A stretch of 64,000 nt of DNA from Atractiella rhizophila (lineage: Eukaryota): assembly GCA_021432655.1 (NCBI GenBank), contig MU271410.1:1-64000 (forward strand), given 5' to 3'. The notes below the pieces were generated by a model, which worked only from the letters and a program-made list of their open reading frames with translations, searched no databases and was not told the DNA's origin. Position numbers and translations under genes: made by a program. This document shows positions 2,096-60,876 of this stretch, one piece after another (position 1 is the first letter of the stretch; the number at the start of each line of letters is the position of its first letter).

Positions 2096-2231
2096 GATTG
2101 CGAAGAGCACCAACTCTTTCTCTACAGTCAAGTCACGGGACTTAGCGCAGGCAATGCTGCGAACCTTATTGCGTGTGACTGGATTGTGCTCATTCCGAGA
2201 CAACGACGAAGTCGACAGTTACGAATCCACC

Positions 2232-29638: not shown

Positions 29639-30394
29639 TCTTGCGTCAAATTATATCTTCCTGTGCCTGACGTTAGCTGATAATAATAAAAATATCGCGA
29701 TTGGCCCACCCGAGCGCTGATGAGGAGAACGCGAGGGAGGAGACGAGTCGGTATTTATGTCTTCCCACGTCCGATACTTTGGAAGGCGATCCGTCCACAC
29801 CGGAAGTCCAGCCACTGGATCGTCTGTGAGCAACGTTGTTCCAAGCGCCCTCGGACGAGACGCAGTCGTACTTCGGTAACAGCAACTCAGGTCTCAGTCG
29901 CTTTCAACAGCAAAAGCAAAGCGAACGCTAAGATTGGCAGGTGCAGATGCGGAAGGTCAGCACGTACTTCCATAAGATTTGCCATGCCAGATGTGGGCGG
30001 CTTTCCAGATTTCTATCGATGTTTTCCCGAATCCCAAGCTTTCTCCTGTCATATCGGAGTTCCACTCTCTCAGCTGCTTCTGCAGCGGTTATTTAAAGTG
30101 TATTCAATACAGTTGAGGTAGGTTTGAGGGACGTGAGGGGATTATGAACGAAGGACTTGGAAAGAAAGGTGTCGTGCCAAGTTGATTTGATGTTTACAAG
30201 TTTAATGTCGCCCAAAGGACTGGCTGCAGGTTGGGCCTCAAAGTCAAATGGCACTTTTGATTTCTTTTGGTGAATTCTTGGAGGGATTGGATCGAAAGAT
30301 TGGATGGATGATTGGAACAGTAACCAAGCGAGAGCAAGCAAGATGGTGGGCAAGGATAAATTGCTTCGCAATCGGTGGATAACATCTACAACAC

Positions 30395-30980
30395 TTAGTC
30401 GAACAATCCAAAACCCTGTGTCCCACATCAAAACACGACCACGATCAGCAATCATTCCGAGTTAAGTAGAGCACATAGGCTGGAGGGCGGAGTGGGCAGG
30501 GAGGAAAACAAGACCCACCATATCGTCATCCGACTCCTCTTTCTCCTCCACTTTCTCTTCTTTCTTCTCCTCAGCCGGAGCAGCTCCACCAGCAGCAGCA
30601 CCACCGGCGGCTGGGGCAGCTCCTCCTCCACCACCGGAGGGAACGGACGCAAGCTTGGTTGAGCCTTCGGCAATCAGGTCGTTGATTGATTTGCCTTCGA
30701 GCTCGGAGAGGAGGGAGGATAGGCGGGACTCATCAGCGTCAATTCTGTTGGGCGAATCAAAGGAAGAAGACATGGTTAGATCTGTGTTCTTGGAAAGGAG
30801 AATGAAATTTGAAAGAAACTTACCCGACGGCGGAGAGGACACCTTTGATGTCGGCAGCGGAGGGAGAGGTGTTACCACCGATCGTGAGGAGGAGATAACT
30901 GCAATATACAGCAATCCATCAATCCTACGAGCCTTTTCCTGTGAGGATCACATAGAAACGCACGCTGCAAGATGCTTCAT
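30395..30980 (-). CDS. RPP2: 60S acidic ribosomal protein P2, copy 1
   Basis: [49 protein letters not shown]...[16 protein letters not shown]. Confidence 0.96.
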
Positions 30981-31149
30981 TCTGCCATTGAAGGGACTCA
31001 TCAGCATCTCGTCAGAAAAGGAACAGACGACGACTCACTTTTTGTATTTCTCGTCGAGTGTAAAATCAGTTTAACCCTTGAATCAGAACCGGGGAGACCT
31101 AACAACTTCGACGTGCAACGGAAAATTTTCAGCTGGCTCACGAGTCAGA

Positions 31150-31188
31150 TCAAAGAAAAAAACAAAAGCCACAAAACCCCAACCCTAC
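31150..31188 (+). promoter_or_regulatory. Candidate ribosomal-protein promoter element in the RPP2/RPS15 divergent promoter (copy at 35368-35406)
   Basis: TCAAAGAAAAAAACAAAAGCCACAAAACCCCAACCCTAC closely resembles the RPS2 upstream sequence at 49671-49707. Confidence 0.55.
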
Positions 31189-31269
31189 TTGCTTTTTTGG
31201 CTGAGAGACAGCATCAGAATCGAGCGAGGAGGAAGAAAACGAGCAAGGGAACTCGATAATCAAGCAAGT

Positions 31270-31984
31270 ATGGCCGACGAAGCAACCCGCAAAGCTCGTA
31301 CTTTCCGCAAATACTCCTTCCGCGGAGTCGAGGTGCGTTCTTCCTTCCCTTTTCCTCGCTCAGTACACTTCTCGCAAAGTGGGATGGGAGACTGATTTTT
31401 TTGGTGGAACGGAGAACAGCTCGACAACCTCCTAGACCTCTCCCCCGAAGCGTTCTCTGACCTCGTTCATGCTCGCGCGCGAAGGCGATTCCAGAGGGGA
31501 TTGAAGAGGCGACCAATGGGTCTGATCAAGAAACTGAGGAAGGCGAAGAAGGAGGCCCCGGCGGGTGAGAAGCCTGACGTCGTCAAGACCCACCTTGTGC
31601 GTCTCTTCTTTGTTTTGTATTCTGGGTCGGGTGAATGATGGCTGATGGTTCTTGTTGGATTGGTAGAGGGATATGATCATTGTCCCTGAGATGATCGGAA
31701 GCGTTATTGGTATCTATAACGGAAAGACCTTCGTGCGTATTTCCTTCTCATTCCGTTTTCCTGTTTCGTTAAAGTCTAATTTTATGTGCAGAATTCGGTA
31801 GAAATCAAGCCTGAAATGACTGGACACTACCTCGGCGAATTCTCCGTACGTATCGTCACCCTCACCGTCCGTCCTCATCTGAAGCGGATTTCCTTTATGT
31901 GAACAGATCACCTACAAACCCGTCAAGCACGGACGTCCTGGTATTGGAGCTACTCACTCCTCTCGATTCATTCCTCTCAAGTGA
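31270..31984 (+). CDS. RPS15: 40S ribosomal protein S15 (uS19), copy 1
   Basis: [28 protein letters not shown]...[24 protein letters not shown]...[40 protein letters not shown]. Confidence 0.96.
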
Positions 31985-32473
31985 TTGTTTGCTTGTGTTG
32001 GTTTTTTCGCTGCGATCGATGGATATATGGTATCATGACATGAAAATATGACTTGCCGTCTCTTTTTACCCCAGTTTCCTCGTATTTGTGAGCATGCACG
32101 ACCTTGCATTCGAAACAAAAGACCACGGAATTGAGTCAAACTTCTCAGTTCACGGTCAAACTGAGATGTTGGATAGACGGACGAACCTATCCATTGCCAA
32201 TAACAAAATCTGTCATGCATTTCAGGCTCAAGCATTCCTGTGTTTCTCACGGAGCGAGACGGATTGACTGCTAATATGGAAGGTCGATATAACTACGGCT
32301 TCGGACGATCCCGATCGGGAAGAAATTTTTGTGAAGCAAAGAGGTGAGACTGCTGCTGAGGCTGAGATATTGGATAGATAGTGCGATAATTGGCTTCACT
32401 GTGAGCGTGCAGCATGTTTATGCTTCTCTCCCAAGTATAACTGATATTGGAATCAGCGATAGAAAATACTACA

Positions 32474-34099
32474 ATGATCACCCTGCTTGGGCCTCCAGTT
32501 CTCTCTCCCATCCGCACCTCCACTCTTATCTCCGTCCTCGCTCTCTCCTCCCTCCAAGTGCACACCCTCTACTTTCTCCACCTATCTCCATCCGCCACTC
32601 CTCCCACTGCGGACACTCTCCCGCCACAACTCCATGACATCCTCCAGTCCCGCCCCTTCGTCCCTTCTCCTTCTCCGCCTCCGTCCGTCGAGGGGACTTC
32701 CGACGGGGTGACCGTCAGACTGTACGTATATCCGCGTCCGGGGACGATATCACCCTTCTCGTCCAAGGCGACCGACATCCTCCGCTCCTGCTCCCTTCTC
32801 CAGCGGACAGGCATCGAGCGTGTGGAGCGCGGAGAGCTCTGGGAACTCTCCTTCCCGCCCGTCAAGCCGCCGTACAAGAATTTGACTCCCGAAGAGGTGT
32901 CGAGGGACAAGGATATCGTGCGGAGGATTCACGATCGGATGATTGATTCCCTGTCCCTCTCGCCCCCGACTGAAGAGGAACTGTTCTCTAGACCGATAGC
33001 TAAACAAGTCGTTCGCCTCCCGACGAGACCTACGAGGGAGGACCTGATGAACCTGAACAAGGAGCTGGGTTTGGCGTTGAGCGACGGAGAGATCGAATAC
33101 CTGGTCGAGGAGTATGGGAAGCGGAGTGCAGAGGAAGGAGGTGGACCTACTGACGTCGAGCTCTTCACTTTTTCACAGATCAACTCGGAACATTGCAGGC
33201 ACAAGACCTTCAATTCGCACTTCCTCTCACCGCAAACACCGCACACGCTCTTCCAGATGATCCGCAACACGTCCTCCTCCTCGCCCAGCGGGTTGATATC
33301 CAGCTACTCAGACAACGCAGCTGTCTTCTCCTCTCCTCCCCTCCATCAAATACCCACCTTTCTCGCGCCGAACTACTCCACACACTCCTTCCCAAAGGAC
33401 GAACAACCGGGAATACTGATCAAAGCGGAGACACACAACCATCCCACTTCCATCTCTCCCTTCCCAGGAAGCGCCACCGGAACGGGAGGTGAGATAAGGG
33501 ACGAAGCGGCGGTCGGTCGTGGGTCTCGTCCGAAGATGGGTGTGGTGGGGTACATGGTTGGAAGTCTGAATGGGAGGGAAGACAGGCCGTCTCACGTCGC
33601 CAGTGGACGGGAGATCATGATCCACGCTCCACTCGGAGCATCAGAGTATGGCAACGAACTTGGACGTCCCACTGTCGCGGGACTGTTTAGGACTTTGGAC
33701 GTTCCTCATGACGCGGAGGAGGGAGGTAGGAGGGGATATGGAAAACCGGTCATGCTTGCGGGCGGCCATGGGTCCGTGTTACCCCCTAATATGTTCAAAC
33801 ACCCTCCTTTCAAGCCAGGGACCCTCCTGGTCGTTCTCGGAGGTGGAGGAATGCTTATTGGCCTAGGAGGTGGGAGCGGGTCTTCGTTAGGAGGAGGAGA
33901 GGGAGGAGAAGAGCTCGATTTCAAGAGTGTACAGAGGGGAAATGCAGAGATGGAAAGGAGGGCGATTGAGGTCATAGATCGTTGTAGTTGGCTCGCCCTG
34001 TCTCCTTCCTCTTCCAATCCGATCCTCTCAGTCCACGATGTAGGCGCCGCAGGGTTGTCCAATGCATTCCCCGAGCTCGTGAGGGATTCGGGAAGGTAA
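32474..34099 (+). pseudogene. ADE6: 3'-truncated copy of phosphoribosylformylglycinamidine synthase (about the first 540 codons)
   Basis: Nearly identical to 36685-38304. It stops at a TAA just past the duplication junction and lacks the second synthetase half and the glutaminase domain. Confidence 0.9.
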
Positions 34100-34614
34100 C
34101 AGCAACTCAGGTCTCAGTCGCTTTCAACAGCAAAAGCAAAGCGAACGCTAAGATTGGCAGGTGCAGATGCGGAAGGTCAGCACGTACTTCCATAAGATTT
34201 GCCATGCCAGATGTGGGCGGCTTTCCAGATTTCTATCGATGTTTTCCCGAATCCCAAGCTTTCTCCTGTCATATCGGAGTTCCACTCTCTCAGCTGCTTC
34301 TGCAGCGGTTATTTAAAGTGTATTCAATACAGTTGAGGTAGGTTTGAGGGACGTGAGGGGATTATGAACGAGGGACTTGGAAAGGAAGGTGTCGTGCCAA
34401 GTTGATTTGATGTTTACAAGTTTAATGTCGCCCAAAGGACTGGCTGCAGGTTGGGCCTCAAAGTCAAATGGCACTTTTGATTTCTTTTGGTGAATTCTTG
34501 GAGGGATTGGATCGAAAGATTGGATGGATGATTGGAACAGTAACCAAGCGAGAGCAAGCAAGATGGTGGGCAAGGATAAATTGCTTCGCAATCGGTGGAT
34601 AACATCTACAACAC

Positions 34615-35200
34615 TTAGTCGAACAATCCAAAACCCTGTGTCCCACATCAAAACACGACCACGATCAGCAATCATTCCGAGTTAAGTAGAGCACATAGGC
34701 TGGAGGGCGGAGTGGGCAGGGAGGAAAACAAGACCCACCATATCGTCATCCGACTCCTCTTTCTCCTCCACTTTCTCTTCTTTCTTCTCCTCAGCCGGAG
34801 CAGCTCCACCAGCAGCAGCACCACCGGCGGCTGGGGCAGCTCCTCCTCCACCACCGGAGGGAACGGACGCAAGCTTGGTTGAGCCTTCGGCAATCAGGTC
34901 GTTGATTGATTTGCCTTCGAGCTCGGAGAGGAGGGAGGATAGGCGGGACTCATCAGCGTCAATTCTGTTGGGCGAATCAAAGGAAGAAGACATGGTTAGA
35001 TCTGTGTTCTTGGAAAGGAGAATGAAATTTGAAAGAAACTTACCCGACGGCGGAGAGGACACCTTTGATGTCGGCAGCGGAGGGAGAGGTGTTACCACCG
35101 ATCGTGAGGAGGAGATAACTGCAATATACAGCAATCCATCAATCCTACGAGCCTTTTCCTGTGAGGATCACATAGAAACGCACGCTGCAAGATGCTTCAT
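34615..35200 (-). CDS. RPP2: 60S acidic ribosomal protein P2, copy 2
   Basis: Same exon structure and sequence as 30395-30980. Confidence 0.95.
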
Positions 35201-35487
35201 TCTGCCATTGAAGGGACTTATCAGCATTTTGGTCAGAAAAGGGACAGACGACTCACTTTTTGTATTTCTCGTCGAGTGTAAAATCAGTTTAACCCTTGAA
35301 TCAGAACCGGGGAGACCTAACAACTTCGACGTGCAACGGAAAATTTTCAGCTGGCTCACGAGTCAGATCAAAGAAAAAAACAAAAGCCACAAAACCCCAA
35401 CCCTACTTGCTTTTTTGGCTGAGAGACAGCATCAGAATCGAGCGAGGAGGAAGAAAACGAGCAAGGGAACTCGATAATCAAGCAAGT

Positions 35488-36197
35488 ATGGCCGACGAAG
35501 CAACCCGCAAAGCTCGTACTTTCCGCAAATACTCCTTCCGCGGAGTCGAGGTGCGTTCTTCCTTCCCTTTTCCTCGCTCAGTACACTTCTCGTAAAGTGG
35601 GATGGGAGACTGAATTTTTTGGTGGAACGGATAACAGCTCGACAACCTCCTAGACCTCTCCCCCGAAGCGTTCTCTGACCTCGTTCATGCTCGCGCGCGA
35701 AGGCGATTCCAGAGGGGATTGAAGAGGCGACCAATGGGTCTGATCAAGAAACTGAGGAAGGCGAAGAAGGAGGCCCCGGCGGGTGAGAAGCCTGACGTCG
35801 TCAAGACCCACCTTGTGCGTCTCTCATTCGTTTTGTATTCTGGGTAGGGTGAATGATGGCTGATGGTTCTTGTTGATTGTAGAGGGATATGATCATTGTC
35901 CCTGAGATGATCGGAAGCGTTATTGGTATCTATAACGGAAAGACCTTCGTGCGTGTTCCTTCTCATTCCGTTTTCCTGTTTCGTTAAAGTCAAATTTTGT
36001 GTGCAGAATTCGGTAGAAATCAAGCCTGAAATGACTGGACACTACCTTGGCGAATTCTCCGTACGTATCGACGCTCAGCGTCCGTCCTCATCTGAAGCGG
36101 ATTTCCTTTATGTGAACAGATCACCTACAAACCCGTCAAGCACGGACGTCCTGGTATTGGAGCTACTCACTCCTCTCGATTCATTCCTCTCAAGTGA
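35488..36197 (+). CDS. RPS15: 40S ribosomal protein S15 (uS19), copy 2
   Basis: Same peptide as copy 1. Differences lie mainly in introns. Confidence 0.95.
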
Positions 36198-36684
36198 TTG
36201 TTGCTTGTGTTGGTTTTTTCGCTGCGATCGATGGATATATGGTATCATGACATGAAAATATGACTTGCCGTCTCTTTTTACCCCAGTTTCCTCGTATTTG
36301 TGAGCATGCACGACCTTGCATTCGAAACAAAAGACCACGGAATTGAGTCAAACTTCTCAGTTCACGGTCAAACTGAGATGTTGGATAGACGGACGAACCT
36401 ATCCATTGCCAATAACAAAATCTGTCATGCATTTCAGGCTCAAGCATTCCAGTGTTTCCACAGAGTGAGACGGATTGATTGCTAATATGGAAGGTCGATA
36501 TAACTACGGCTTCGGACGATCCCGATCGGGAAGAAATTTTTGTGAAGCAAAGAGGTGAGACTGCTGCTGAGGCTGAGATATTGGATAGATAGCGCGATAA
36601 TTGGCTTCACTGTGAGCGTGTAGCATGTTTATGCTTCTCTCCCAAGTATAACTGATATTGGAATCAGCGATAGAAAATACTACA

Positions 36685-39600
36685 ATGATCACCCTGCTTG
36701 GGCCTCCCGTTCTCTCTCCCATCCGCACCTCCACTCTTATCTCCGTCCTCGCTCTCTCCTCCCTCCAAGTGCACACCCTCTACTTTCTCCACCTATCTCC
36801 ATCCGCCACTCCTCCCACTGCGGACACTCTCCCGCCACAACTCCATGACATCCTCCAGTCCCGCCCCTTCGTCCCTTCTCCTTCTCCGCCTCCGTCCGTC
36901 GAGGGGACTCCCGACGGGGTGACCGTCAGACTGTACGTATATCCGCGTCCAGGGACGATATCACCCTTCTCGTCCAAGGCGACCGACATCCTCCGCTCCT
37001 GCTCCCTTCTCCAGCAGACAGGCATCGAGCGTGTGGAGCGCGGAGAGCTCTGGGAACTCTCCTTCCCGCCCGTCAAGCCGCCGTACAAGAATTTGACCCC
37101 CGACGAGGTGTCGAGGGACAAGGATATCGTGAGGAGGATTCACGATCGGATGATCGATTCTCTGTCCCTCTCGCCCCCGACTGAGGAGGAACTGTTCTCT
37201 AGACCGATAGCTAAACAAGTCGTTCGCCTCCCGACCAGACCGACGAGAGAGGACCTGATGAACCTGAACAAGGAGCTGGGTTTGGCGTTGAGCGAGGGAG
37301 AGATCGAATACCTGGTCGAGGAATATGGGAAGCGGAGTGCAGAGGAAGGAGGTGGACCTACTGACGTCGAGCTCTTCACTTTTTCACAGATCAACTCGGA
37401 ACATTGCAGGCACAAGACCTTCAATTCGCACTTCCTCTCACCGCAAACACCGCACACGCTCTTCCAGATGATCCGCAACACGTCCTCCTCCTCGCCCAGC
37501 GGGTTGATATCCAGCTACTCAGACAACGCAGCTGTCTTCTCCTCTCCTCCCCTCCATCAAATACCCACCTTTCTCGCGCCGAACTACTCCACACACTCCT
37601 TCCCAAAGGACGAACAACCGGGAATACTGATCAAAGCGGAGACACACAACCATCCCACTTCCATCTCTCCCTTCCCAGGAAGCGCCACCGGAACTGGAGG
37701 TGAGATAAGGGACGAAGCGGCGGTTGGTCGTGGGTCTCGTCCGAAGATGGGTGTGGTGGGGTACATGGTTGGAAGTCTGAATGGGAGGGAAGACCGGCCG
37801 TCTCACGTCGCCAGTGGACGGGAGATCATGATCCACGCTCCACTCGGAGCATCAGAGTATGGCAACGAACTTGGACGGCCAACTGTCGCTGGACTGTTTA
37901 GGACTTTGGACGTTCCTCATGACGCGGAGGAGGGAGGTAGGAGGGGATATGGAAAACCGGTCATGCTTGCGGGTGGCCATGGGTCCGTGTTACCCCCTAA
38001 TATGTTCAAACATCCTCCTTTCAAACCAGGGACGCTCCTAGTCGTTCTCGGAGGTGGAGGAATGCTTATTGGCCTAGGAGGTGGGAGCGGGTCTTCATTG
38101 GGAGGAGGAGAGGGAGGAGAAGAACTCGATTTCAAGAGTGTACAGAGGGGAAATGCTGAGATGGAAAGGAGGGCGATTGAGGTCATAGATCGTTGTAGTT
38201 GGCTCGCCCTGTCTCCCTCCTCCTCCAATCCGATCCTCTCAGTCCACGATGTAGGCGCCGCAGGGTTGTCCAATGCATTCCCCGAGCTCGTGAGGGATTC
38301 GGGACTAGGAGCTAGGATCGAGTTGGGGAAGATAAGGAACGACGAGTCTGGAATGTCGCCGCTGGAAATATGGTGTAACGAAAGCCAGGAACGGTTCGTC
38401 ATCGCCCTCGATCCCTCTCCAAGCTCGGTCGCGACATTCAAGGAGATATGCGAGCGGGAGAGGTGTCCTTTCGATATCGTTGGGGAAGCGGTGGAGGAAC
38501 AAGAGATCCGATTGGTCCTTGAAGGCGGCGGGGACCTAGTGTTCGACATGGGCGTCCTCTTCGGCTCGTCCAAAGGCAAACTCGAACGTCCAATCGTCAC
38601 AACCGAAGCAGGGAGGATGCTCGACCTCTCCCTCCGCACTAAACTCACGTCTTTCCCACTCGAAACCTTACTCGAAGCCGTCCTCCGAATTCCAGCGGTA
38701 GCGTCCAAGGGATTCCTCATTACCATCTGCGATCGGACCGTCGGAGGATTGACGGTCAGAGACCAGATGGTGGGTCCGTACCAGGTCCCGGTGGCGGATG
38801 TAGGGGTGAGCAGGAGGACGTACGGCTTCGACGTCGATGCTGGGGAAGCCGTGGCTCTCGGAGACCGTCCCTCCCTCGCCCTTATCGATCCCGCATCCTC
38901 CGCGCGTATAGCGGTGGCGGAGGCGTTAACTAACATCGTCGCTGCCGACGTGAGGAACTTAGGGGACGTGAAGTTGAGCGCGAATTGGATGGCGGACGCC
39001 AAGTTTGGAAATGGGAAAGAGGCGTACGAACTCTATCGAGCGGTGGAGGCGATTGGGATGGACTTGTGTCCAAAGTTGGGAATCGCGATTCCGGTTGGAA
39101 AGGACAGTGTGAGCATGAGCATGCGGTGGAGGGACCAGGAGAGCCACAAGTCTATCACTGCACCCGTCACAGTCGTCATTTCTGCTTTTGCCGGCGTGGA
39201 GGATATCAAGAAGACCTGGACTCCGCAATTGAGGAGGGACGAGGAAGAGACCGTCCTCGTGCTAGTGGATCTTGGAAAGGGAAGGGACAGGTTGGGGGGA
39301 AGCGCGCTCGCGGAGGTACTGCATGATTTGTTGGGCGATGACGCGCCAGACGTGGGGGCGGAGGAGCTGAAAGGATTTTTCAAATCCTGTGTGCAAGTGA
39401 GAGACGAGGATTTGGTGCTCGCATACCATGATCGATCGGACGGTGGACTTATTGTTACCGTTCTGGAGATGGCATTTGCTGGAAGATTAGGCGTCGAACT
39501 ATCTCTACACGTCGACGAGGAGGAAGAAGCGGAGGCTGATCTCATCCCGAGGTTGTTCAATGAAGAAGTCGGAGCGGTGTTTCAGATCAGGAAGAAAGAT

Positions 39601-48581: not shown

Positions 48582-49609
48582 CTACTCTTTCCTTGCCGTA
48601 AGCTAGGGCGCACCATGAAGTCAGCTTTGGTTACAGTCAAAATAAAAAGACAGACCTGAAGGTGCGAAGAGAACTCATCGTAAGGTGTTTGCGATGGAGG
48701 AATGACACTGTGAGTAAATAGATCAATTTTCAGCAATGAGGGGCGAAGTAAGAACGCACGGCCAGAGATCGGGAGTCAGGTACGAGTAGGTGGCAGTAAT
48801 GGCAGCGTAGGTAGCCTTGATAAAGTTACCCATGGTTGAGGTGTTACCTCTGCTCTGAGTGTAGACGTCCTGAATACCAGCGAGCTGAAGCATCCTCTTC
48901 GACGCTGGCGCAGCGACGATACCTGTTCCTCGGGGAGCGGGAACAAGGCGCACGAAAACGGATCCAGTCTTTCCATTGACCTTGCAAGGGACGGTATGAG
49001 GGTCTCCGAGCTTCGCACCCCAGTAACCTCTTCGAACAGGGACGACTGAGAGCTTGGCGAGAATGATAGCTCCACGAATGGCCGTTGCAACTTCCTTAGC
49101 GCACTTAACTCCCAGTCCAACGTGACCGTCAAAGTCTCCAATGGCGACAAAAGCCTTAAATCGAGTCCTCTGACCAGCTTGAGTCTGCTTCTGGACGGGC
49201 ATAATCTTCATGACTTCATCTTTGAGTTTGGGAAGGAGGAGGTCGACAATTTGGTATTCCTTGATGGGGAGGGAGAAGAGGTAGATTTCTTCAATAGATT
49301 GGATTTTTCCGTCCTTCACGAGGCGTCCAAGTTTCGTAACCGGTTGCCTTTAACACAACACACCTCTTTTCACCGTATCCTCACGGGATTAGAAGAAATG
49401 CGTACCATTCCTTCTCCTCATCCCTCTTGCCTCCTCGGCGCGGCCCTCTTTTGGGTCCTCCACCTCCTCGTCCACGTCCTACATAAATCCCCCATCAGAT
49501 GATACTCGCTTCAGAGCTGGCAGTGCTATACCTCGTGCAAATCCTATAAATCTTATGAGTTTACATAATAATAGATGGAAAGAGAGCACATACCTCCACG
49601 GTCAGCCAT
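48582..49609 (-). CDS. RPS2: 40S ribosomal protein S2 (uS5)
   Basis: RGG-rich micro-exons, then '[34 protein letters not shown]', '[15 protein letters not shown]' and '[12 protein letters not shown]'. Confidence 0.96.
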
Positions 49610-49707: not shown

Positions 49708-50173
49708 TGTACACTACCCGATCGCGTCTCGAGGACAGCAGTGTGGAGAATTTATTCAGTAGCGCGAGTGAGTGAGTGAGAGCGTAAAAGCTATGGCATA
49801 TATTTCAATTGTAGTCAAACAGTCAGTAAAATTTCACACGAGAACACAAGAAGGGGGAGTTCCTAGATGCTTTGGGAGAGATGGTAACAAGTGAGCACGA
49901 AGGAGACTGGGAATGCGACAGGATGGATGACGGAGAAGAAATCGAGGAAAGAAGGAAAGACAAATCAAGATGGACAAGTGAAAGGCAGAAACGATGGAAG
50001 GCATGGATGATGAGGCACTGCATAGGTATTGCTAAGTACTGATGTGTTGGTTTTCGCTTTGTGGTAAATTGAATGCTTGAATCCCAGATCTTCAAGAATA
50101 TGAGCATCTTTCGCTCTGTTGTGCCGCTGCTTCCTTCCCTAAATGAGAACAGACGTGATTTTTAACCCCATGA

Positions 50174-51774
50174 TTAGAGCTTGAAGCCCACCACCTCCTC
50201 ATCCATGGGTGCCTCTTTATGACCACCCCAATACTCTCCCCAATCCCAAGTGACTTTGACGTTCTCCACCTTAGTGGCCTCGCTATCCCTGCTGTCCATG
50301 CTGACTTTCGCCTTCGACGTCGGCACAGGATTTGAAGCCACACGTCGGTGCTGGGAGACGGGTCTAGACTTCGTCTGTGCATTGACTTGTCCAGGAGGTC
50401 GAGGTGCAGTGGTAGTCTTCTTCGCGGTCTGAGCAGGTGGCTTCTGCGTTCGCGATTGCGGTTGAGCAGCTGCGAGGAGCGGACGAGGACGCGAGATAGC
50501 AGGGCGTGCTTGAGTGACGCTACGTTGTTGACGCGATGGAGCTGGTGTCGTAGCCGCTGGCGCGGAGGATTTTGCGACTCGAGCAAGGTTTTTTGTGCCT
50601 TGGCTACGCTTCAGAGATGATTTGCGGTGGATTATGACGTCGGGAAGAGGGAAAGGAAAGAAATTTGCGAATGGGGATTCTAAACTCGCGTCAATTTCTC
50701 AACCTTGACCAAGGTAGACAGGATAGATATGACATACTTCGATTCGTGAAAGCTTCCTCGTAAGCTTCTTTGACATCTTCATCTTCAAACTTATCCCTCT
50801 CTTCTTCTTTCTCGCTCGCATGAGAGAACGGTAACCAAGCCATACCCCTCCTGAAGATACCTTCTGGCAACCTGGGCACCTCTACATCTTGTAAGATCTC
50901 CTCATACGCGATGCGCTCTTCTCTAGCATCTGTCTCCTCCTCCGTTTCCCTCCCAGGCATATGTTCTACATCCTCCTCGCCTCTCAACGCACGCTCCATA
51001 AATTCTCTCCTCGACTTCTGCTCTTCCGTCTCCTGAACACTTTCTTCCCCATTGAGATTGAGCAGACCTGGATCAAGAGGTGTGGAAAATCGGATCTTCT
51101 TTCTCTTCCCTGGGGACGGAGTCTTAAGGCTGCCTGGAGAGAAGGCGGACTGTCGAGGAAGAAGAGCGGGAGGTGGCGGTGGTGCGAGAGGAGTAGTTGA
51201 CTTCAACGACGATCTTTGCTTCTTCGCAGTGGTGTTGAGCGGCTTTGGGCGAAGAGCAGTACTAGGATTAGGCTTCCTACCAGTCTGAGGAGCAGGACCG
51301 GGAGTCTTGGGGGGAGGCGATAACGCTGAGGGAAGAAAAGCAGTCAGATTCATCTCGCTTTCGCCGAAAGTAGGACAACACCAGAGACGTTTCCTTTTTA
51401 TCGCGCCGAACACCGATATCAATCATCGGATAACGAAATAAGTCGGCTTTCATGCCCCCAAAATTTTCTGACAAGTCATGCAAGATCATGCAGCCCTTTC
51501 AAACATTACAAACCGCTACAAACCCCTCCAACACGTCTGAAAAACAAGAAAACGTACCTCTCTCTTTGCCTTTTACCCCTTTCACATTGACCGTGAGCAA
51601 AATCTTTTCCTTGCCCTCTTTCCCTTCATTCTGTTTCCCTGAATGCCCTGGGACGTCATTCAGGATGGCGCTTTTACCCGCGAGTTTTGGAAGGTGGGCA
51701 GACGATGGATTTTCCTTGTCTACGTGGATCCGACGGCGGGATTGAGCGTGTTCGATAGGTCGAGAGTGCAGCAT
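50174..51774 (-). CDS. Disordered protein with KEN box and DVEHMP motif; securin (Pds1/Cut2)-like candidate
   Basis: Exons read MLHSRP...HVDKENPSS, a basic SP/TP-rich region, acidic 'GEEDVEHMPGRE' and a C-terminal 'DEEVVGFKL*'. The gene itself is well supported. The securin call rests on motifs only. Confidence 0.5.
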
Positions 51775-54686
51775 CCTGAGCAGGGCATCTATCGCCTCGG
51801 TGGTTGAAACCGAAAAGAAAACAAGCCCAAATTGATCACCTGACCACGAAGGGACAAATCCAAAACAACACAGAATTTCTGCAGCCACTTGTCGTCGAGA
51901 GGTATCTGGGCGGTACAGTACGTTGGAGGAGTGAGCAATACCTACCGATGAGAAGTTTGGGAGTAGCGTGTGTGCTCAATTTATATTTTCTGATTCAGGA
52001 TGTCGTGGATGTTCGTTGTCCGTTCCGACGCCTTCTGGGCTTCGTCAACTTCGTCCGTCTCTGCTCCGGCTCGTTCATTAGCCAACATTAGCCTTCTAAT
52101 TATGTGCTCTGGACTGGCATAATGGCGTTTTGACCTTCTGGAAGATGCGAAGAAGAAGCGATATGATTCTTTCCCTGAAAGGCATCAACAACGTCAAACT
52201 GACTCTTGGTTTCCTAGCCAGACCACCCCCCTTTTTCGGAATCGTCGTGCAAGTATCGGGGACGTACAAACCGTCCACAATTCCAACAATGTTCGCACCA
52301 CGAAAATATGTCCCTGCGATAATGGTTTCGTGGCGTTGGAGGGATATTCGGCGCTCGTTGTTGGAGCGTTTGAGGACGATTGCTGGAGGCTTGTGGACGC
52401 GTCGCGGAGACGTTGGACGGCCGTGGGAGGAGCGTTTGGGCGGTATTGGAGAACTATTTTGGATTGATTTGTGGACGGTTTGGTGGTCGTTTTCGAAGCG
52501 TTGCGGAGGCGTTGTTTCATGATTGTGTAACGAGCGGTCTGCTGTCTGTTAAGCATTACAGTGTAATTGCAGCATCATCTTCAAAGTAGATCCCATGGTT
52601 CTTCACATGCAACTCATTGTGCAACCTCATACTATTGCATACATGATAAGGTACCACAGCCTTCGAGCCCCATCTCTTCCCCTCCTTCGCCGTCCAGCTT
52701 CATTCTTCCCATCCCCTTCCCCTGATCCTGATCGCTGATCGCTCGCTCCTACTCCTCTCCCCACTTGTTCGCCTTCGCCTTCACTCCTCACCTTCCCCCG
52801 TCCTCGTTCTTCCTCTCCCGTTCAAGTTGCACCATACGAAGTTCCCGTCTTTTGTCGCTTGATCTCGTACTCCTCATTGCTCATTGCGCTGCCTAAATAC
52901 AAACATGGTTAGTCGTTCTACAGATCAAGTCTCAGAATCTTCTCTCAAGGAGTTAGAGTCGGTTCTCTTCTTGGAAAACCAGGTAACCCCATTGAACGAG
53001 AAAGAGGCGAGCGAAATTGGTTGAGAAATTGATCTAGGTCCTCGTGTGGACTGAACCTAAGTCATTGATAAACAAGATTTTCAAACGGGTAACAAGTGGA
53101 AAGACTTAGCAGATCCATGAGAGAAAGTTCGTCGGGTGAGCGTGTCGTCCAGACGATCCGTCAAGATTAAATGAGCATTGAGAAGGACAGATGACGCGTG
53201 CCACTAACCATACAGAATGCAAAGTCAGAAGCTTGAGGAGGTCAGAGAGCGGGAAATAGTTCCAAAAATTGTAAGTCCTCAGTTCCAAGCTCTTAACTGG
53301 AAAGTGGCGCGTTTTCGGCAGCAGAACAGTTCTCCTGGATTCAATGTTGCTCAACGCAGTGAATTGACGCGACACTTGGACCCAAATCAATGCTCTGTCG
53401 AAGTCTGCACGCCACGCTAACGTAGGACCGAAAGACGCACTTTTTTTGCCCAATTCCACCTCCAATAACCAAAACAAAACATTCCCACATAACATAAGGA
53501 TTATCCCTCTCCCCATGGAAGTCGGACCGGAGTCGAAATACTCAAAATTGTCGGAAAAAAACGCGTCGAAAAATCAGGGGTCCAAAAGTGAAAAGCGCGT
53601 TCAAAGTGAAAAAAATCGTCTGTAAACCTACTCACCATATCCCTCAAGCAACAGAAGAAGTTTGACACGCGTAGGAAAGGCGATAGCTGAGGAATTGTTG
53701 AGTTTGTCGTTCGGTTCGTCGTCGTTTGAATGTGACATCATATCTCCGACCGCCTCCTTTCGCAGGCTTGTCAACTAGCGAGGGAGTCGACGAGGGAATG
53801 CAGGCATCAGGTAAGTTTTTGCTATCTGCTTGCATGGGGTGGTTGAAGGAGAGTCCTAAACTTACTGTGGACCTGGATCTGTATGGTGACAGTCGTTCAT
53901 AAGTATGAAGGGACTCTCTGGATTTCACTTCGTCCATGCAAGCTTGTCCTAGTTTTGTTGAGATGTACTTCCTAGATTGATGGCAGAAGCGTTCGTGCTA
54001 TGCTTACACCGACACAGAAAGCTCAGTGGTCCTCGCTACACCGACAGCTCTCCATTTGGAGTTAAAAGCTTGCTGGAAGGGTACACGCTTCGGTGCTGCA
54101 CCTCTCCAGCTCTTTTTGCGACGGCTTCGACCACAACTTCGGAATTTCAAACGGCTTGAATACCTTGGAGAGGTTTCCGAGGGTGCAGTATACTTTGTAG
54201 TTCAAGGTATGTATGCCATCGTGATTGAGGGATAATGGGCAATATTAGTTGCACGTCAATGGGTCGTTGCCATTGCAGCGTTCTTATGGGCCAATGGTTT
54301 GCAATGGACCGGTGATCCACGGTCAACTCCTCTGGTGCTAGCTCAAGTGCAATCCTAGGAGCAGCGGCACTGCACTGGGTGGAATACTGCTCTCAATTTC
54401 TTTGTATCCTTTTATTGTAACCTTGACTAATTTTTATGTTTACTTTGAAACAGCCTCCGCCTCTTTCTTCACATCGCTCTCTTCTCGGCTTGTTACGTTC
54501 GACACCATTCCTCTTCCTATCGGTCTGCGTACTCCATCCCTTGCCTTGCTGCTTATTCTCGCACATCATTACATAGTGGCAGCTGCCATGTCCTTGTCCT
54601 TGTCTTCCGCCCTTGCCGCCTACCGTTACCATCGAAAGCCAGCCACGGTAACACCTGTAATCACCTCCATCCTCGCAACCAAATCG

Positions 54687-54872
54687 CATGTTGCTGAGTT
54701 CTGGATCCGGGTGGTCAAGATTGCGGAAACTGTACAGAAGGAAACGGGAAAGAGCAAGTTGTTAAAGGACTTCTTGAAGACCACTGAAGGGAACGGAGAT
54801 GGCGCAAGGGTGATTAGGGAATTGAAGGAGGAAGTCGAGGCTTTCGCAACCTCTTTCCCGCTTCCTGGAATT
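54687..54872 (+). pseudogene. Orphan C-terminal fragment of serine hydroxymethyltransferase
   Basis: 'HVAEFWIRVVKIAETVQKETGKSKLLKDFLK...IRELKEEVEAFATSFPLPG' matches the eukaryotic SHMT C-terminus. No upstream SHMT exons are present in the window. Confidence 0.8.
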
Positions 54873-55368
54873 CGTGTGAGTATGGTCTGGCTTCCTCGAG
54901 GGACTATTGTTGAACATAAGAATAGAATTCGTCCACTTTCACCAGACATGAGTAGAAGTAGTAGATGTCACCGTGGATTTCGTTCAAATGTAGAAAATTG
55001 TGGTTGCAAGGGTTTCAGTCGGTGTAGGAGTTGGATGAACAATGAAATGTCACCTGTTTGTATAGTAAGAACTTCAACGTTCTGCAAAAAAATGGCATTT
55101 GTGTTCTTGCCTATTTATTTACTGTGCGACATTCGTGAGCAGAAGTTTCGTTGAAGGGAGAGGATTGATTATTATGTTTGCAACCATTTGCAGCATGAGT
55201 AAGGTGTATGATACAGCTCCCGGAAGATGGGCGAACTATTAACGAATAAATATCCATCGAACGACGAAGAGCATGCTGCATTAAAGACATCTATGAAACG
55301 TGCGTGAGAGTGGGGTTTAATCTATACCGTCAAAGTCAATTCAACGTACGCAGAGAGATAGTCGTGAC

Positions 55369-56872
55369 TTACATCTGACCCATTTTGTTTACTCGAACAG
55401 AGACTGACCATGCCCTCTCGTCTCCCATATCCACCCTGCTGCCCAAACCCTGCTCTACCACCGAATCCACCCTGTGCGTATCCTCTTTTCGCTCAATTTC
55501 CGTAACCCCGCGCTGCTGCCCGTCCCTGCTACCGTATCCACTGCCCTGTCCTCCAAAATCGCCTCCACGTCCAAATCCACTATTAGATCGAGACGAGCAT
55601 CCATTCGACGATCTTCCACCACCAGAACCACTCATGCCAAGCTTCTGCAAGAATGCGTGAGATAGCCCAGGTGCTTGCGCAGGTAATCCACGCCTCTAGC
55701 TGAAACATCTGAAGTGACGAAGACCTTGTACATTCCCTCCACGCTCTCTCTAAACATTCTCGCGACGCCAATCCGATTCTCCTGACTCTTCCTCGTAGAC
55801 GTGAGTTGACCTCGAAAACGGAAGATCTCTTCGCAGAGCCGCTGCGATCTGAGCAAATGTCTCTGTATACTTGGTGGTGGGCAAGAAGATGATTGCTTTT
55901 CTGCCTTTTGGGTTCTCGAGTTGATCCTGCGCAATGAGCCTCATGATGTGGGGGATGACATCGGTGGGAGAGTCTACGACGGTGGCGTATTGAGGAACAT
56001 GAGTGTGGGTTTTGTTCTCGTTTGACATAACAGTATTGATGAAGAGTGGTTTCGGGTTGAGAGCGGCGCGTGCGACCTCCTTGACCTCGTTCTCAAGGGT
56101 GGCGGAGAACATGAAAGTCTGTCTTTTCTGTTTCGGTGGCATCTTGAGCATGATTCGCTTGATCTCGTCCTTGAAACCCATACCCAACAACGTATCCGCC
56201 TCATCGAGAATCAATCGCTCAGACACCGCAACCGACGATTCCACCATGGGCTCGGTAATGAGGGGATCGTTCATTCGCCCAGGAGTAGCAACGACGATAT
56301 CCCTCCTTCCTGAAGTCTTTTGTTTGTACCTCCGACCAAAAGCTGTACCAGGAATCTAGGAAGATGAGAGCACAACTTGATAGCCTCGTTCGCAATTTGA
56401 GTCGCCAATTCCGTCGTGGGTGACAAATTGAGAGCTTCCGCGCTCGAGGAGAGAAATGACGGCCTCCTGAACGGGAGACATATGCTTGAAGGAGAAAAGA
56501 GCGGAGGTGAGAGCTTTGTACAACCCGGGATGGAGGGCAGACTCGACTGTCGAGCATTTTCGACCCTGTGGTGCGGCCTCAGTCTCTGGAGCAGAAGACT
56601 CTTGTGCTTCCGACTCGGCTTCGGGAGCAATGGCGAAGGTGCGGTTGAAGGAAGTGAAGGAGAAAGCGAGAGGTTGGTGACGGGTAAGAGAGAAGGCGCT
56701 GGGAACTACATCGGTAGGGTGACGGTTGAGCGAAAGAGGGAGTGAAGGGTTGGTGTCGTCGCGGATTCGAGGTGGAGGTCGGAAAGCGCCACGAAGCTAA
56801 GCTATGCTGTGCCCAATGCAGATTTAATAAAGAACAAACTGCTAGAACAGAAAAGGGCTTACAGCTACACAT
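55369..56872 (-). pseudogene. Mss116/CYT-19-like DEAD-box helicase pseudogene (frameshifts, internal deletions)
   Basis: Q motif 'FSFKHMSPVQEAV', Ia 'LSPTTELATQI', II 'ILDEADTLL', III 'FMFSATL', IV 'IIFLPT', V 'TSDVSARGVDY' and a Gly/Arg-rich tail lie in changing frames. Motif I (GxGKT) and motif VI (HRxGRxxR) are absent. Confidence 0.85.
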
Positions 56873-58028
56873 GGTGCTATTCTGCTTCATCCGAGGGGTG
56901 CTCATTTGGCTGCGAAAGTCCATTCATCGTCGCCGTTTCAAGTAATTTCGATTAGAATTCAAACTTTTACACCAAATTCAGCGTTTTCAATGAGGCGAGA
57001 GGAGGATGGAGGGTCTGGGTCTGGCCTACCAGGCAACCGTGGGAGAGGGAGGAGGAACAGTGCAGTTCCGCCCTGGGCTGCCAAAGAATTAGCAAACTGC
57101 AATAAATGAAAGGAACGGGAAGGGAACGCACACAAAATGGGTCTTAATAATAAAAAATTGATGAACCATGCTGCTTCATGCTGTCCTAGACCCAAACACA
57201 CCTCAAGCATGGCCTTCCAACCACCATTCAACCGTTGCAGCAATGTTGACAGACAGTTGTCCATTATTGGAATGGTTCCGCATTTCCCAATGATCCAGCG
57301 ACGGTTGAGAAATGCAGTCCCAATGCTGTCAAAACCATTGGCAACGCCTCAAAATGCGGGGGCATTCGCAACGATTATGCAATGCGTCACCTACGATTTC
57401 AAAATGCGATGCCAATTGCTTCCCAACCACCAGCACTCAGGTCGGGATTTTTCAAGGTTGCAGGACCATTCTCAAGGTTGGCCTTGGAGACAATCATTAT
57501 GTGAGGGATGGCTATGATTGCGGGATGATGCTGAAAAAAGGGGGTGGTCTAGCTAGGTTGTTTTCTTCGCGCCCTTGCATAGTTCTAGTAAGAGATCTCA
57601 AGTGATTCCCTTTTGCAAAGGTTGGGCATATTATTGACCTTTCGGTCCTAGCATGTTTCGTAACGTGACGGGCTGCTACAATCCTAAGGACCAATTCGAC
57701 TCCAACCTTTTCAGCCTGATGTTTGGTAGATCAGTGATAAACACTGTTGGAAGAAGCAGGGAAGAAACGAGAACCCAATGTTAGCATACGTATAAGTCTT
57801 TTGTGACAGTGTCAGGTTGGACGTCTGCAGCAGACTGAAAATCGTAGATATTCCGTGGTGGAGCGGCAACTCTTCCAGGCTTCAACCTTGAGCCCTCGAG
57901 TGCCACCGTGACGGAATATCAAGGAGAACGGTCACCGCTGTCAGCGGTTTGCACGTCAGCATGTAAATCTTTAAATCCCGTGGCCGCGAAGATAAAAGCC
58001 TGCTGATGGAGGCTGGTCCCTCAGAGAT

Positions 58029-59187
58029 ATGGCGCCGTTGAACAAAGCTCTTGTGTCCTCCTTTTGGAAAACTCTAGACAACACAACAGCAGTCTACAGG
58101 CAGACGATAGATCCCGATTGGGCGTTCGATTTTGGGAACGTTCCTCAAGGCGGCAAGTTACTTTGTGCTCTTCTGATCACCCATTAATGTTGTGTGGAAA
58201 AAGGTTACTTACTCGGCATTATTTTGAGCGCTACGATATCATTTATCAGTTCTCCTCCAGATGGCCTGGATTTCCTGCCTTCGAAAGACAAACACCCAGT
58301 TCACATAGTGGGTCATTATTTACGTCGCTCGGAGGTAGGGCAGGAAGTAGATATCGTCATCCGCATTGTTCAGACCTCGAAGACAATGCTATGGCTGAGC
58401 GGAGAGCTGTTTTGCAACGTGTGTATCCTCCCTGGAGCAATCGCCGAGCAAATGACAGGCCAAAGCGGTATAGGGAGCCCTTCAGATTGCATCCACTAGC
58501 ATCTTTGGCCCTGCTCCATCCCTGTCCTCCTTGTCCATATCCGATCCAAGACCGCCGTATCCAACCATCTCACCCCCTTTCCCGTTCGGTGTCCATCCTC
58601 AGTCACATGTGGCGGAACAATTTGGAAAGCTGCCTTGGTATGGAAACTCAGGGACATTCAAGATTAAGGAGGTTCCAACTAAATATCTGTTGAAGAGCCT
58701 GACTGATGGGTCGGAATGGGGAGCCTTCGTAGAGTTGAGTGGAGACCAAGCCACGGTACAGTCCTTGCCGTAAGTTGTACCGTTCGCCTCTCGACAGAAT
58801 GTTCAAGGAAGGTATCAGGTTCTATGTGGATATATTTAAAAATGTCGGTCCCTTTCAGAATAACAAGCTGCTGGACGCTGAAAACTTATTTAGATGGTTG
58901 CTTTAATGACGCCAGGTCAACCACCATCATGGTATCCCACAATTACGCTCAGCATAGAGTTCAAGTTTCCCATTCCTGCTGATCCACTTCGACAACTAGC
59001 CATCTTTTCGAACGGGCGAGTAGCGGTAGAAGGCAGAGCTGATCATTCCGTAGAACTCTGGGCTGTTCCCGCTGAAGTTGATGTGGATGGAGAGGAGTGG
59101 AAGAAGAAGTGCTTTTGTCTTGCGATCGGGAGGCAGATTAGTTTGACACGGGTTCCAGAAAGGAATTGGGGAGGATCAAAGATTTGA
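58029..59187 (+). CDS. Double-hotdog thioesterase-like protein (TesB-like superfamily)
   Basis: 'IDPDWAF..NVPQG|GYLLGIILSA', 'HPVHIVGHYLR', 'WYPTITLSIEFKFPIP' and 'EGRADHSVELW'. Confidence 0.75.
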
Positions 59188-59362
59188 TGACATATTCCAT
59201 ATTGGTACATGATTTATTCGGGTTCCTTTGTGCTCTGAAATTCGATAATGACCTTTCTCCGAGAGATGCCCTTCATCAGCATTGAAGAGAGTTACCCTCC
59301 CAACCTCCTAGCCTCCTGAAACCGTCATTCTGAATGGAACTGTCCAATTCAGGACTGCTGCC

Positions 59363-60876
59363 TTATTGATCGTCAGTCAACGTCACCGCAACTGAACCAC
59401 GCATGATTTCCCTTGCAGTTCTTTCCACCACGCTATGAGGAATTCCCCCTTCGTCTCTCAACGTTCCCTCAACAATTCCAGCTGGATGCGCCACGACGAC
59501 ACTGCTTGCAGAGCTACCCGTCGTGGCTGAACCAGAGATGAGAGAAGGCAAAGATCCTTTATACTTTTGGGAGAGGACCAAATTGGCGAGCGTTGTACCA
59601 GGGATGGTGCGGTGGAAGTTGCCAACGCTTATGGCTCTGACAATGAGAGAAGGAGCGGGCTTATCCGCACCGAGCGTCGATCCATCTGTGAACTTGATGG
59701 GATGCTTAGGGTTGACGCGGTCGAGCAAGACAATTTTTGGTCCTGCAGATGTCATCGGGATATGATACTACAGCGATAAGAGCCTGTTAGCGGATTGTGA
59801 CTAGGGTAGGAGCCACCCACAGTTTGGCAGATTTCTTTGCGGATACCTTCAAGTATTTGATGTAGCTCTGGTGTGGAATCCAGTTCAGCTGGCTGAAGGA
59901 TTTGCAGAGGGGGAACCGAATTCTTTGTCTGGTATATGTCAATCAAGTGGCCTATTTCTTGCCAGTCAAGGAAGATGTTCGCAAGTCCGGCATCGATGAC
60001 TGAGAACTTAAACTGTTTGACAATATCAAAACATCTCTGCAACAAGAAACTGAAAGACCTTATCATTCAGAGTATCCAACTCTCTGGATGTGACCAGCCC
60101 CATCGTCTTCTCAGCTGCTGCCTTTGCGCTCTTCAAAGGGGTCCAACACTGGATCCTAGTCCCTTTTCCAGGAACTCCGGCAATGTGAGTAGTCCAAAAA
60201 TGGTCTTCACCTGAAGAACCAGGGAGATAGACATTCCCAGATGCATGATCAATGGGAACCTGGCAAGTAAATATGGTACCGATGCCAGCTGCAAGGATGC
60301 GAATACTTTGAGTGGAAATGGCTGCATCTTCAGATTCAGTTGGTTGGACAATCCCATGGTTGACTGCGGCATGTGCAACTGCTGAGAGCATGTTTCCACA
60401 GGTTCCAGACCTTGGAATGAATCAGTTCTGTTGCAGCCAAGCAATGAACAAGATCAAACCAATCCAAATTGTCATTCCTTACTCCAACCTGACAGAAGCT
60501 AGGTACAAAAGATGAGGTTGCATCTTTGTCACGGGCTAGAGTGTGCTCACCGATATACGACGTCCCATCCGTTCTCCCCTTTTGCCCGTTGCACGTCATC
60601 GGCCCATTCCACACCTTCTAACCTTCCATACTTCCTCATACTGTCCAAACCTTCTCCCGGGGCGCTGATAACGCACGCCTTACTAAGAGAGCTTACTCCA
60701 CCTCCAAGGCCATCAATCTGGCGACCATTCGGGTCTGGAGATCCAAGACTTTGAAGCAGAACTTGGGCACGAGCGGACGGCCGCAAGGATGCGAGATGGG
60801 AGGCACGGAAAATGAGACCGCGGCTTGTTCCACCGCGGTAGAAGAAAGCTGGGATATGGTGGAGTGAAGCGACCAT
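59363..60876 (-). CDS. PrpF/DUF453-family isomerase (aconitate/methylaconitate/methylitaconate delta-isomerase-like)
   Basis: 'PAFFYRGGTSRGLIF', 'LGSPDPNGRQIDGLGGGVSSLSK', 'SGTCGNMLSAV', 'SVIDAG', 'SVGNFHRTIPGT', 'HPAG' and 'RTAREIMRGSV'. Confidence 0.9.

Follow-up and report, generated by a model that had tools for sequence, protein, structure and literature searches.

The window analysed here comprises 64,000 nucleotides from Atractiella rhizophila (contig MU271410.1, positions 1 to 64,000 of the forward strand), and the subject of this report is an element of 5,345 bp, measured tip to tip, at positions 52213-57557. The closest named proteins are also from Atractiella rhizophila (Pucciniomycotina, Atractiellomycetes). 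The element appears to sit in a spacer of ~700 bp between two divergently oriented genes, of which the minus-strand gene ends near 51975 and the plus-strand gene runs from ~58007. A first-pass annotation, made from the letters alone, had described intact genes on both flanks of a gene-capturing transposon, and both flanking genes do yield spliced RNA-like contigs. The element itself is bounded by terminal inverted repeats (TIRs), and its limits agree with the edges of raised contig depth and with the joint of a contig that lacks it. In our view the element is most probably a single copy of a Pack-type (transduplicating) DNA transposon that is non-autonomous and moves by cut-and-paste, in an Atractiella-like fungus.

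Terminal inverted repeats and an empty site

An inverted-repeat search of the window identifies a TIR pair with its left arm at 52213-52252 (plus strand) and its right arm at 57518-57557 (minus strand). The arms are 40 nt long and complementary at 33 of 40 positions, and the tip reads CCTAG. A repeat of 25 bp with 23 identical letters had been claimed in the first pass, and BLAST confirms exactly this identity for the outermost 25 nt of the longer pair. The match has an E value of 1.1e-6 when 1 kb is compared with 1 kb, and of 3.1e-4 against the whole window. A 23-mer taken from the repeat is present in the 64-kb window solely as the arm pair, and two matches occur in none of 100 dinucleotide-preserving shuffles.

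Patchy inverted similarity had also been described for a few hundred base pairs further inward. The strings in question are present, but they do not rise above chance. For the next 420 nt inward of the 40-nt arms, the best local score is 16, as compared with 13.1 +/- 2.0 for shuffled sequence, and is reached by 32 of 300 shuffles, the score of a global alignment is reached by 2 of 200 shuffles, and a subterminal k-mer search yields only weak shared 6-mers. The left (52253-52650) and right (57170-57517) subterminal regions are without coding similarity in open reading frame (ORF) and profile searches, and the left one was also covered by repeat searches. Within the left subterminal region there is a 17-nt inverted repeat (94%; 52267-52283 and 52466-52482, 182 nt apart) and a 21-nt tandem repeat (52358-52399). 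These may be protein-binding repeats of the element or may be due to chance. Across 51500-58300 there are no Rfam families and no tRNA genes, and only eight short tandem rows are listed.

One sequence of a closely related isolate lacks the element at precisely this position. It comes from run X1 of a close relative, a run that, to judge from the lack of intron joints, consists of DNA. One X1 contig joins position 52210 to position 57558 and thereby skips 5,347 nt, with two letters that fit either side. The joint lies at most 3 nt from the left tip and directly after the right tip, and the contig has a depth of 178 compared with ~300 in the flanks. At 51700-51756 there are sites where about half of the X1 depth carries another letter. 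X1 may therefore contain both a filled and an empty allele of the site. Its flanks depart from the window at 40 of 4,828 listed positions (<1%). The first-pass annotation had suggested a search for an empty site in related strains; one is indeed present, although its joint indicates a duplication of two letters rather than a single 9-mer. The same annotation had called the element old, which is contradicted by an insertion that is present or absent between sequences less than 1% apart in their flanks. The element is recently mobile.

The dinucleotide TT is located directly outside the left tip (52211-52212) and again directly outside the right tip (57558-57559), as indicated by both the flank comparison and the X1 joint, and it is the only perfect direct repeat adjoining the TIR tips. 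The joint at face value means that insertion added 52213-57557 plus two T. We slightly favour the view that the two TT copies are a putative 2-bp target-site duplication (TSD) and that CCTAG is the element's own tip. Insertion without any duplication seems improbable.

A different placement of the tips of the same transposon must also be considered. CTAG is palindromic, so the outer TIR letters could represent a duplicated TA within a palindromic target, CCTAGG, and at both ends TA is flanked by C and G, and further out again by C and G. The element would then span 52217-57553, and the empty X1 allele would be an excision scar from which 8 bp were lost at the TT microhomology. In the literature, PHISTA families with TA duplications are described from Pucciniomycotina, near the Nuwa lineage with its target C|TNA|G (PMC12730594, PMC4482050), and most PIF/Harbinger TIRs start with A or G (PMC4482050), as they would here if TA were the duplication. 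This placement would thus match PHISTA of rust fungi, the Nuwa-type targets, or a Tc1/pogo-like element. However, it needs two events, an insertion and an imprecise excision, where the TT placement needs one. The predicted CCTAGG is missing from the empty-site contig, and the flanks that would bear on it are readable at one copy only. We therefore regard a TA duplication as rather unlikely, and return to TT as the simplest account of the joint.

The element had been proposed to be Pack-MULE-like with a ~9-bp TSD or, on a second reading, a member of hAT or Zisupton/KDZ with an 8-bp TSD. Pack-MULEs have a TSD of ~9-11 bp and TIRs that are usually at least 100 bp in length, whereas hAT and Zisupton (KDZ) elements have an 8-bp TSD, or 7 bp in Kyakuja and hAT7. 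The 9-mers offered as a decayed duplication (CTTGGTTTC and GTTGTTTTC) do flank the element as written and agree at 7 of 9 positions, a match seen in only 118 of 58,393 pairs at such spacing in the window, and a cargo of gene fragments is the hallmark of a Pack-MULE. Among T-rich pairs, however, 10 of 230 agree equally well. In addition, the coordinates place 14 letters between the outer flanks in the empty-site contig, whereas 9 would be expected from a single 9-bp target and 18 from two intact copies. The flanking 8-mers agree at only 3 of 8 or 5 of 8 positions depending on where the tip is placed. With TT as the sole repeat and two letters shared at the joint, the 9-bp (MULE) and 8-bp (hAT, Zisupton) readings are therefore unsupported, and an insertion that is polymorphic between sequences less than 1% apart should have kept a perfect duplication. 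The repeats are also short for this group, since they end at 40 nt with no significant similarity further in, and most MULEs have long TIRs (PMC3310237). Gene fragments without a transposase, as in a Pack-MULE, are found at this locus, but neither a ~9-11-bp TSD nor long TIRs are present. A Pack-MULE would also have the TIRs of an autonomous element that encodes a MURA-type transposase, and no such transposase is encoded in the window. A Mutator or hAT/Zisupton origin with a decayed duplication is thus very unlikely.

Helitron1 elements have 5'-TC and CTRR-3' ends, insert between A and T, and produce no TSD. This locus has neither the 5'-TC end nor the target between A and T; the insertion point falls within a run of T that precedes a G, and its 5' side has no A. 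In favour of a Helitron2 or Helentron with short terminal inverted repeats in a T-run, the insertion site is T-rich and the two extra T could be the element's own. Helitron2 elements start with T and in some species insert after T-runs (PMC3627910), and Helitrons capture gene fragments in fungi (PMC4289320). However, Helitron2 repeats are described as 8-15 nt long, with a hairpin downstream of the 3' repeat, which itself stops short of the 3' end by 20-30 nt, or by 20-40 nt in Fusarium (PMC3627910, PMC5148889). The present repeat measures 40 nt, and the empty-site joint sets ends from which each arm is 0-2 nt away. The first-pass annotation had considered two opposed Helitron-type 3' ends that terminate in CTAG, which accords poorly with one precise joint that removes both ends together, an outcome unexpected for independent elements, and with 40-nt terminal repeats. 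We give very little credence to either form of a Helitron origin.

Fragments of host genes within the element

No recognisable transposase had been seen in the interior, and this is borne out by profile searches. There are no transposase or Rep/Hel matches among 20 ORFs of at least 80 aa in 50000-60000 (E<=0.01), where the only matches inside the element are to DEAD-box proteins, and none among 61 ORFs of at least 35 aa within the element (E<=0.5), which otherwise produce sub-threshold noise. A partial Helicase_C match with an E value of 0.017 is found among these 61. The 120 ORFs of at least 110 aa elsewhere in the window likewise include no transposase or Rep/Hel protein and correspond to ordinary genes only.

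The interior had been described as holding pieces of unrelated host genes, and this description is correct for at least two of them. One is a serine hydroxymethyltransferase (SHMT) gene, of which the cargo contains the 3' end, and the other is an MSS116-like DEAD-box helicase gene, most of which is present; both are broken. These two assignments rest on protein and profile matches together with contigs that appear to derive from RNA. The latter come mainly from one set (X3) and in part from two others (X4 and X5). Short CT..AC intervals of the minus-strand genes in the flanks are missing from them (e.g. from 50679 to 50738 and from 51325 to 51558), and one loose X3 end finishes in a run of A. 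X3 depth ranges from 5.7 to 36,279. The highest values are reached at an S5-family ribosomal protein gene (Pfam Ribosomal_S5) at 48726-49349 on the minus strand, and X3 was therefore marked as RNA. X4 and X5 contribute small shares as scattered pieces only, and the parts that they leave uncovered are uninformative.

The SHMT piece (54690-55113, plus strand) consists of the last ~420 bp of the gene. It takes in the final part of the penultimate exon, the intron that follows (~54876-54925), and the terminal exon with its 3' untranslated region as far as the poly(A) site. Against rabbit SHMT (PDB), the match covers residues 405-467 with an E value of 1.2e-6, and the piece is identical at 55 of 61 positions to the C-terminal part of an SHMT-family protein of Atractiella rhizophila (P0124; KAH8929827.1). 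RNA-like contigs skip ~50 nt after the penultimate exon, passing from 54873 to 54929 with five letters between. When this intron is removed, the frame continues to a stop codon and 7 of the final 10 residues equal the C-terminus of P0124. Loose contig ends are found before 54696 and behind 55090. To the left of 54696, an X3 contig leaves the element and enters letters that encode the preceding P0124 residues, and therefore the SHMT piece starts inside an exon.

P0124 is encoded on another contig and is only 223 aa long, with large parts of the SHMT fold skipped. It may be a poor model of a real SHMT gene or may itself be another partial copy. The model looks truncated, a point that concerns the annotation of this genome.

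The helicase piece (55242-57169, minus strand) is defined by a profile match, a three-frame reading, its relatives and contigs. Its DEAD domain is matched with an E value of 1.2e-15, and the three-frame translation shows shifts of frame at ~56300 and ~55791. Between the Q motif and the PTRELA-like motif there is no motif I (P-loop) segment, and motifs V-VI are absent between a 'SARGVDY' stretch and a glycine/arginine-rich tail, which is kept. The absence of motif I is due to a deletion of ~308 nt at ~56434. At this position an X5 contig has 308 extra letters and an X1 contig runs on with unlike sequence. The piece also retains an intron at ~55321-55372, where RNA-like contigs skip ~50 nt from 55321 to 55379 with seven letters between.

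Both this intron and the one in the SHMT piece are present in the DNA of the element and absent from the RNA-like contigs. The cargo was captured as genomic DNA and not as processed RNA, because the introns are retained. The RNA contigs over the cargo may come from the parent genes or from other copies of the element, and the introns are located in the element DNA either way.

We attempted to place the helicase cargo by using a tree of 75 DEAD-box proteins, and this tree was uninformative because the cargo models hold out-of-frame stretches. The branch that leads to the two cargo models measures 2.22 changes per column, and with midpoint rooting they fall outside all the other proteins.

Two further parts of the interior may derive from other genes. 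A CT-rich stretch together with an exon-like piece (52650-53100, plus strand) is represented by very abundant RNA-like contigs, with an X3 depth of 12,418 over 52670-53136. These contigs carry small indels at 52935, 52987, 53017 and 53091. The second part is an exon at 53976-54206 (plus strand), possibly from a third captured gene, which is bordered by two GT..AG introns (53811-53975 and 54207-54453) that are spliced out in RNA-like contigs. Its 84-aa translation shows faint similarity to cysteine-type leucine-rich repeats. Among 1.84 billion representatives it has a single match, to a leucine-rich repeat protein with an E value of 2.1e-4, which is too weak to name the gene. A long chimeric ORF that would read across the two RNA-supported introns into the SHMT tail was tried and rejected, as it meets a stop at the first exon junction. 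We found no sign that the cargo has a function for the host, given that the helicase copies are broken and that the check for a chimeric ORF met this stop.

Copies of the element elsewhere in the genome

A repeated family had been anticipated, and two annotated cargo copies on other contigs support it. The gene model on the helicase remnant of the window (P0001) is 143 aa long and belongs to a contig of 70,499. Other copies of the cargo are represented by a model of 467 aa (P0004; KAH8918909.1) on a contig of 54,295 and by one of 482 aa (P0125; KAH8916972.1) on a contig of 40,540. By tblastn, P0004 spans window positions 57169-55753, with long matches that are 89-93% identical, and P0125 spans 56923-55242. 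Thus, at least three annotated 'helicases' lie on transposon cargo, which matters for the annotation of this genome.

The copies share much of the damage described above. P0004 reads through the same out-of-frame stretch near 56300 as the window copy, P0125 resembles that copy in its shifted reading at 55791 and in lacking motifs V-VI, and an 11-nt loss is common to the window copy and the P0004 and P0125 copies. Lesions common to copies on other contigs indicate that an already broken unit was copied, and the helicase piece was therefore broken before the element multiplied. P0004 and P0125 both keep the motif I segment, and the ~308-nt loss at ~56434 is therefore private to the window copy.

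The X1 run provides a second line of evidence. Summed contig depth is 1,546-3,119 in the 12 bins that cover 52203-57806, compared with 284-513 in 18 flank bins. The ratio of medians between element and flanks is ~6.6, although summed contig depth is not a copy number and is used here only as a sign of several diverged copies, a caution that also counts against our interpretation. Both edges of the raised depth fall within the bins that hold the TIR arms, with the rise in the bin from 52203 and a return to flank level after the bin ending at 57806. Up to 10 different X1 contigs cover a single variable site. The 658 X1 pieces vary in their likeness to the window: 222 are at least 99% alike, 274 are 95-99% alike, 106 are 90-95% alike, and 56 are lower. 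The whole unit, including its cargo, occurs several times in the genome.

One additional X1 contig (depth 151) has the first 16 nt of the left TIR, then 12 other letters, and then continues from 52800, so that it passes from 52228 to 52800. It is a family member, or that isolate's allele at the site, without the left subterminal 570 nt.

Several observations, in addition to the caution on depth, weigh against the interpretation as a mobile Pack-type element. Only one TIR pair is read directly, and the other copies are known from protein models and from summed depth. The empty site is seen in a single contig that was matched with a likeness threshold of 80 and has only 28 letters on its shorter side, and joints of this kind carry a warning that letters between the two sides are possible. 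Metagenome contigs were scanned with an 18-letter TIR pattern, which identified 10 loci, none of them similar beyond the pattern; the sole BLAST match is 24 nt long, G+C ranges from 0.41 to 0.72, and all 10 are chance matches. A search of proteins of 110-2000 aa yielded no intact parent for the helicase piece, and the best relative outside the element copies is 54% identical. No intact Atractiella rhizophila MSS116-like helicase is present among the best 120 of 206 relatives, in which the next best match has this same identity. Finally, the CCTAG tip equals none of the termini reported for fungal families with a 2-bp TSD (TGT..ACA, CATCA..TGATG and CA..TG) in the excerpts of PMC12730594.

The directly read TIR pair and the indirect nature of the other copies leave some room for the view that there is no transposon at the locus, and that a dispersed segmental duplication or the decay of genes in place has been combined with an inverted repeat that arose by chance. 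However, the repeat is far beyond chance in both shuffles and BLAST, the edges of raised depth fall in the bins of the TIR arms, and the empty-site joint lies no more than 3 nt from the tips. The lesions common to the cargo copies likewise indicate that a broken unit was copied. We consider a non-transposon origin highly unlikely and retain the interpretation as a Pack-type element.

Relation to known transposons and possible mode of capture

The first-pass annotation is upheld in naming a Pack-type, gene-capturing transposon, in the sense of a non-autonomous TIR element with several host gene fragments, although not in its comparison to Pack-MULEs. The evidence for a 2-bp repeat (TT, or TA if the tip is located further in) comes from one copy. 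A duplication of this length would point to PHIS-type (Harbinger/ISL2EU/PHISTA) or CMCT-type (Mirage/Plavaka) elements rather than to Mutator or hAT. Naming the superfamily would require a transposase.

The PHIS superfamily has a TSD of 0, 2 or 3 bp, an AT-rich or palindromic target, and an IS5-type DDE transposase. The putative duplication of 2 bp fits this description in length, and TA within CCTAGG is a possible reading here. ISL2EU elements duplicate AT and the PHISTA elements of rust fungi duplicate TA (PMC12730594, PMC4482050), whereas the duplication at this locus is TT on the simplest reading. Members of the CMCT clade (EnSpm/Mirage/Plavaka) have TSDs of 2-5 bp and termini that are mostly 5'-CA..TG-3' (PMC12730594). 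The length of the duplication fits this clade as well, but the termini here are CC..GG rather than CA..TG. Within this group, PlavakaA has a 2-bp duplication and termini TGT..ACA, and PlavakaB has a 2-3-bp duplication and termini CATCA..TGATG (PMC12730594, PMC4482050). Thus, the element resembles the fungal lineages with 2-bp TSDs (PlavakaA/B, ISL2EU and PHISTA) in the length of its duplication, and PHISTA is also found in Pucciniomycotina (PMC12730594), but the families are compared here by their described termini and duplications only.

Gene capture of several fragments by non-autonomous TIR transposons has been worked out in plants, where the Pack-TYPE elements include Pack-MULE, Pack-CACTA, Pack-PIF, Pack-hAT and Pack-Mariner (PMC8903248). 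By the working criteria that packFinder applies in this source, the element carries TIRs, is not a singleton, and has gene matches without a transposase match. It is also like the plant elements in that its cargo comes from more than one gene, was captured as genomic DNA with introns, and is transcribed. It differs in its fungal host (the word 'fungi' does not occur in PMC8903248), in its 2-bp duplication, and in its CCTAG tip, which matches none of the groups described there.

There are two sets of fungal cases with partial similarity. In Dothideomycetes (Pyrenophora and Pseudocercospora), hAT transposons have transduplicated histone H3, such that a host gene is located between transposon termini and is amplified with the element (PMC6710886, PMC3538342). 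That case involves a single gene taken up as a transcript (a retrocopy), a transposase domain, TIRs of 18-20 bp and an 8-bp TSD (PMC6710886), whereas the present element combines fragments of several genes, introns included, and lacks both a transposase and an 8-bp TSD. Helitrons of basidiomycetes (HELPO in Pleurotus) and of Fusarium (FoHeli) also carry expressed host gene fragments within fungal DNA transposons (PMC4289320, PMC5148889). These are rolling-circle elements with asymmetric short repeats, hairpins and no TSD, and the end structure found here does not fit. A word search of the literature found no multi-fragment Pack-type TIR element in a basidiomycete, which is not proof of absence, and a search of the same kind found no literature on transposable elements in Atractiella rhizophila.

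Most likely, the element is moved in trans by a transposase that an autonomous relative encodes elsewhere and that recognises its 40-nt ends, and its insertion duplicated only 2 bp. The cargo might have been gained by repair or re-mobilisation events, as proposed for the Pack-CACTA and Pack-TYPE elements of plants (PMC8903248).

We also offer, more tentatively, the possibility that a Pack-type family has been active in this basidiomycete until very recently, or still is, and that it represents an undescribed TIR lineage (40-nt ends, a CCTAG tip and a 2-bp duplication) that captures, multiplies and transcribes exon-bearing host DNA. If so, Pack-type elements, whose exon shuffling has to date been described chiefly for plants, would shuffle exons in fungi as well. 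A multi-fragment, intron-bearing and transcribed family that varies between close isolates would provide a tractable fungal case for studying how such elements acquire DNA, because an empty site is at hand and there are copies with and without particular deletions.

Elsewhere in the window there is an assembly gap of 238 N at 2381-2618. There is also a head-to-tail tandem duplication of 4.2 kb (29875-34093 and 34095-38304) with 98.4% identity. Both copies include a 60S acidic ribosomal protein gene as well as the N-terminal part of a gene for formylglycinamide ribonucleotide amidotransferase, which is cut off at 552 aa in the first copy and is full length, at 1,354 aa, in the second. This arrangement could be a real and recent duplication, or could consist of two alleles placed in tandem by the assembler.

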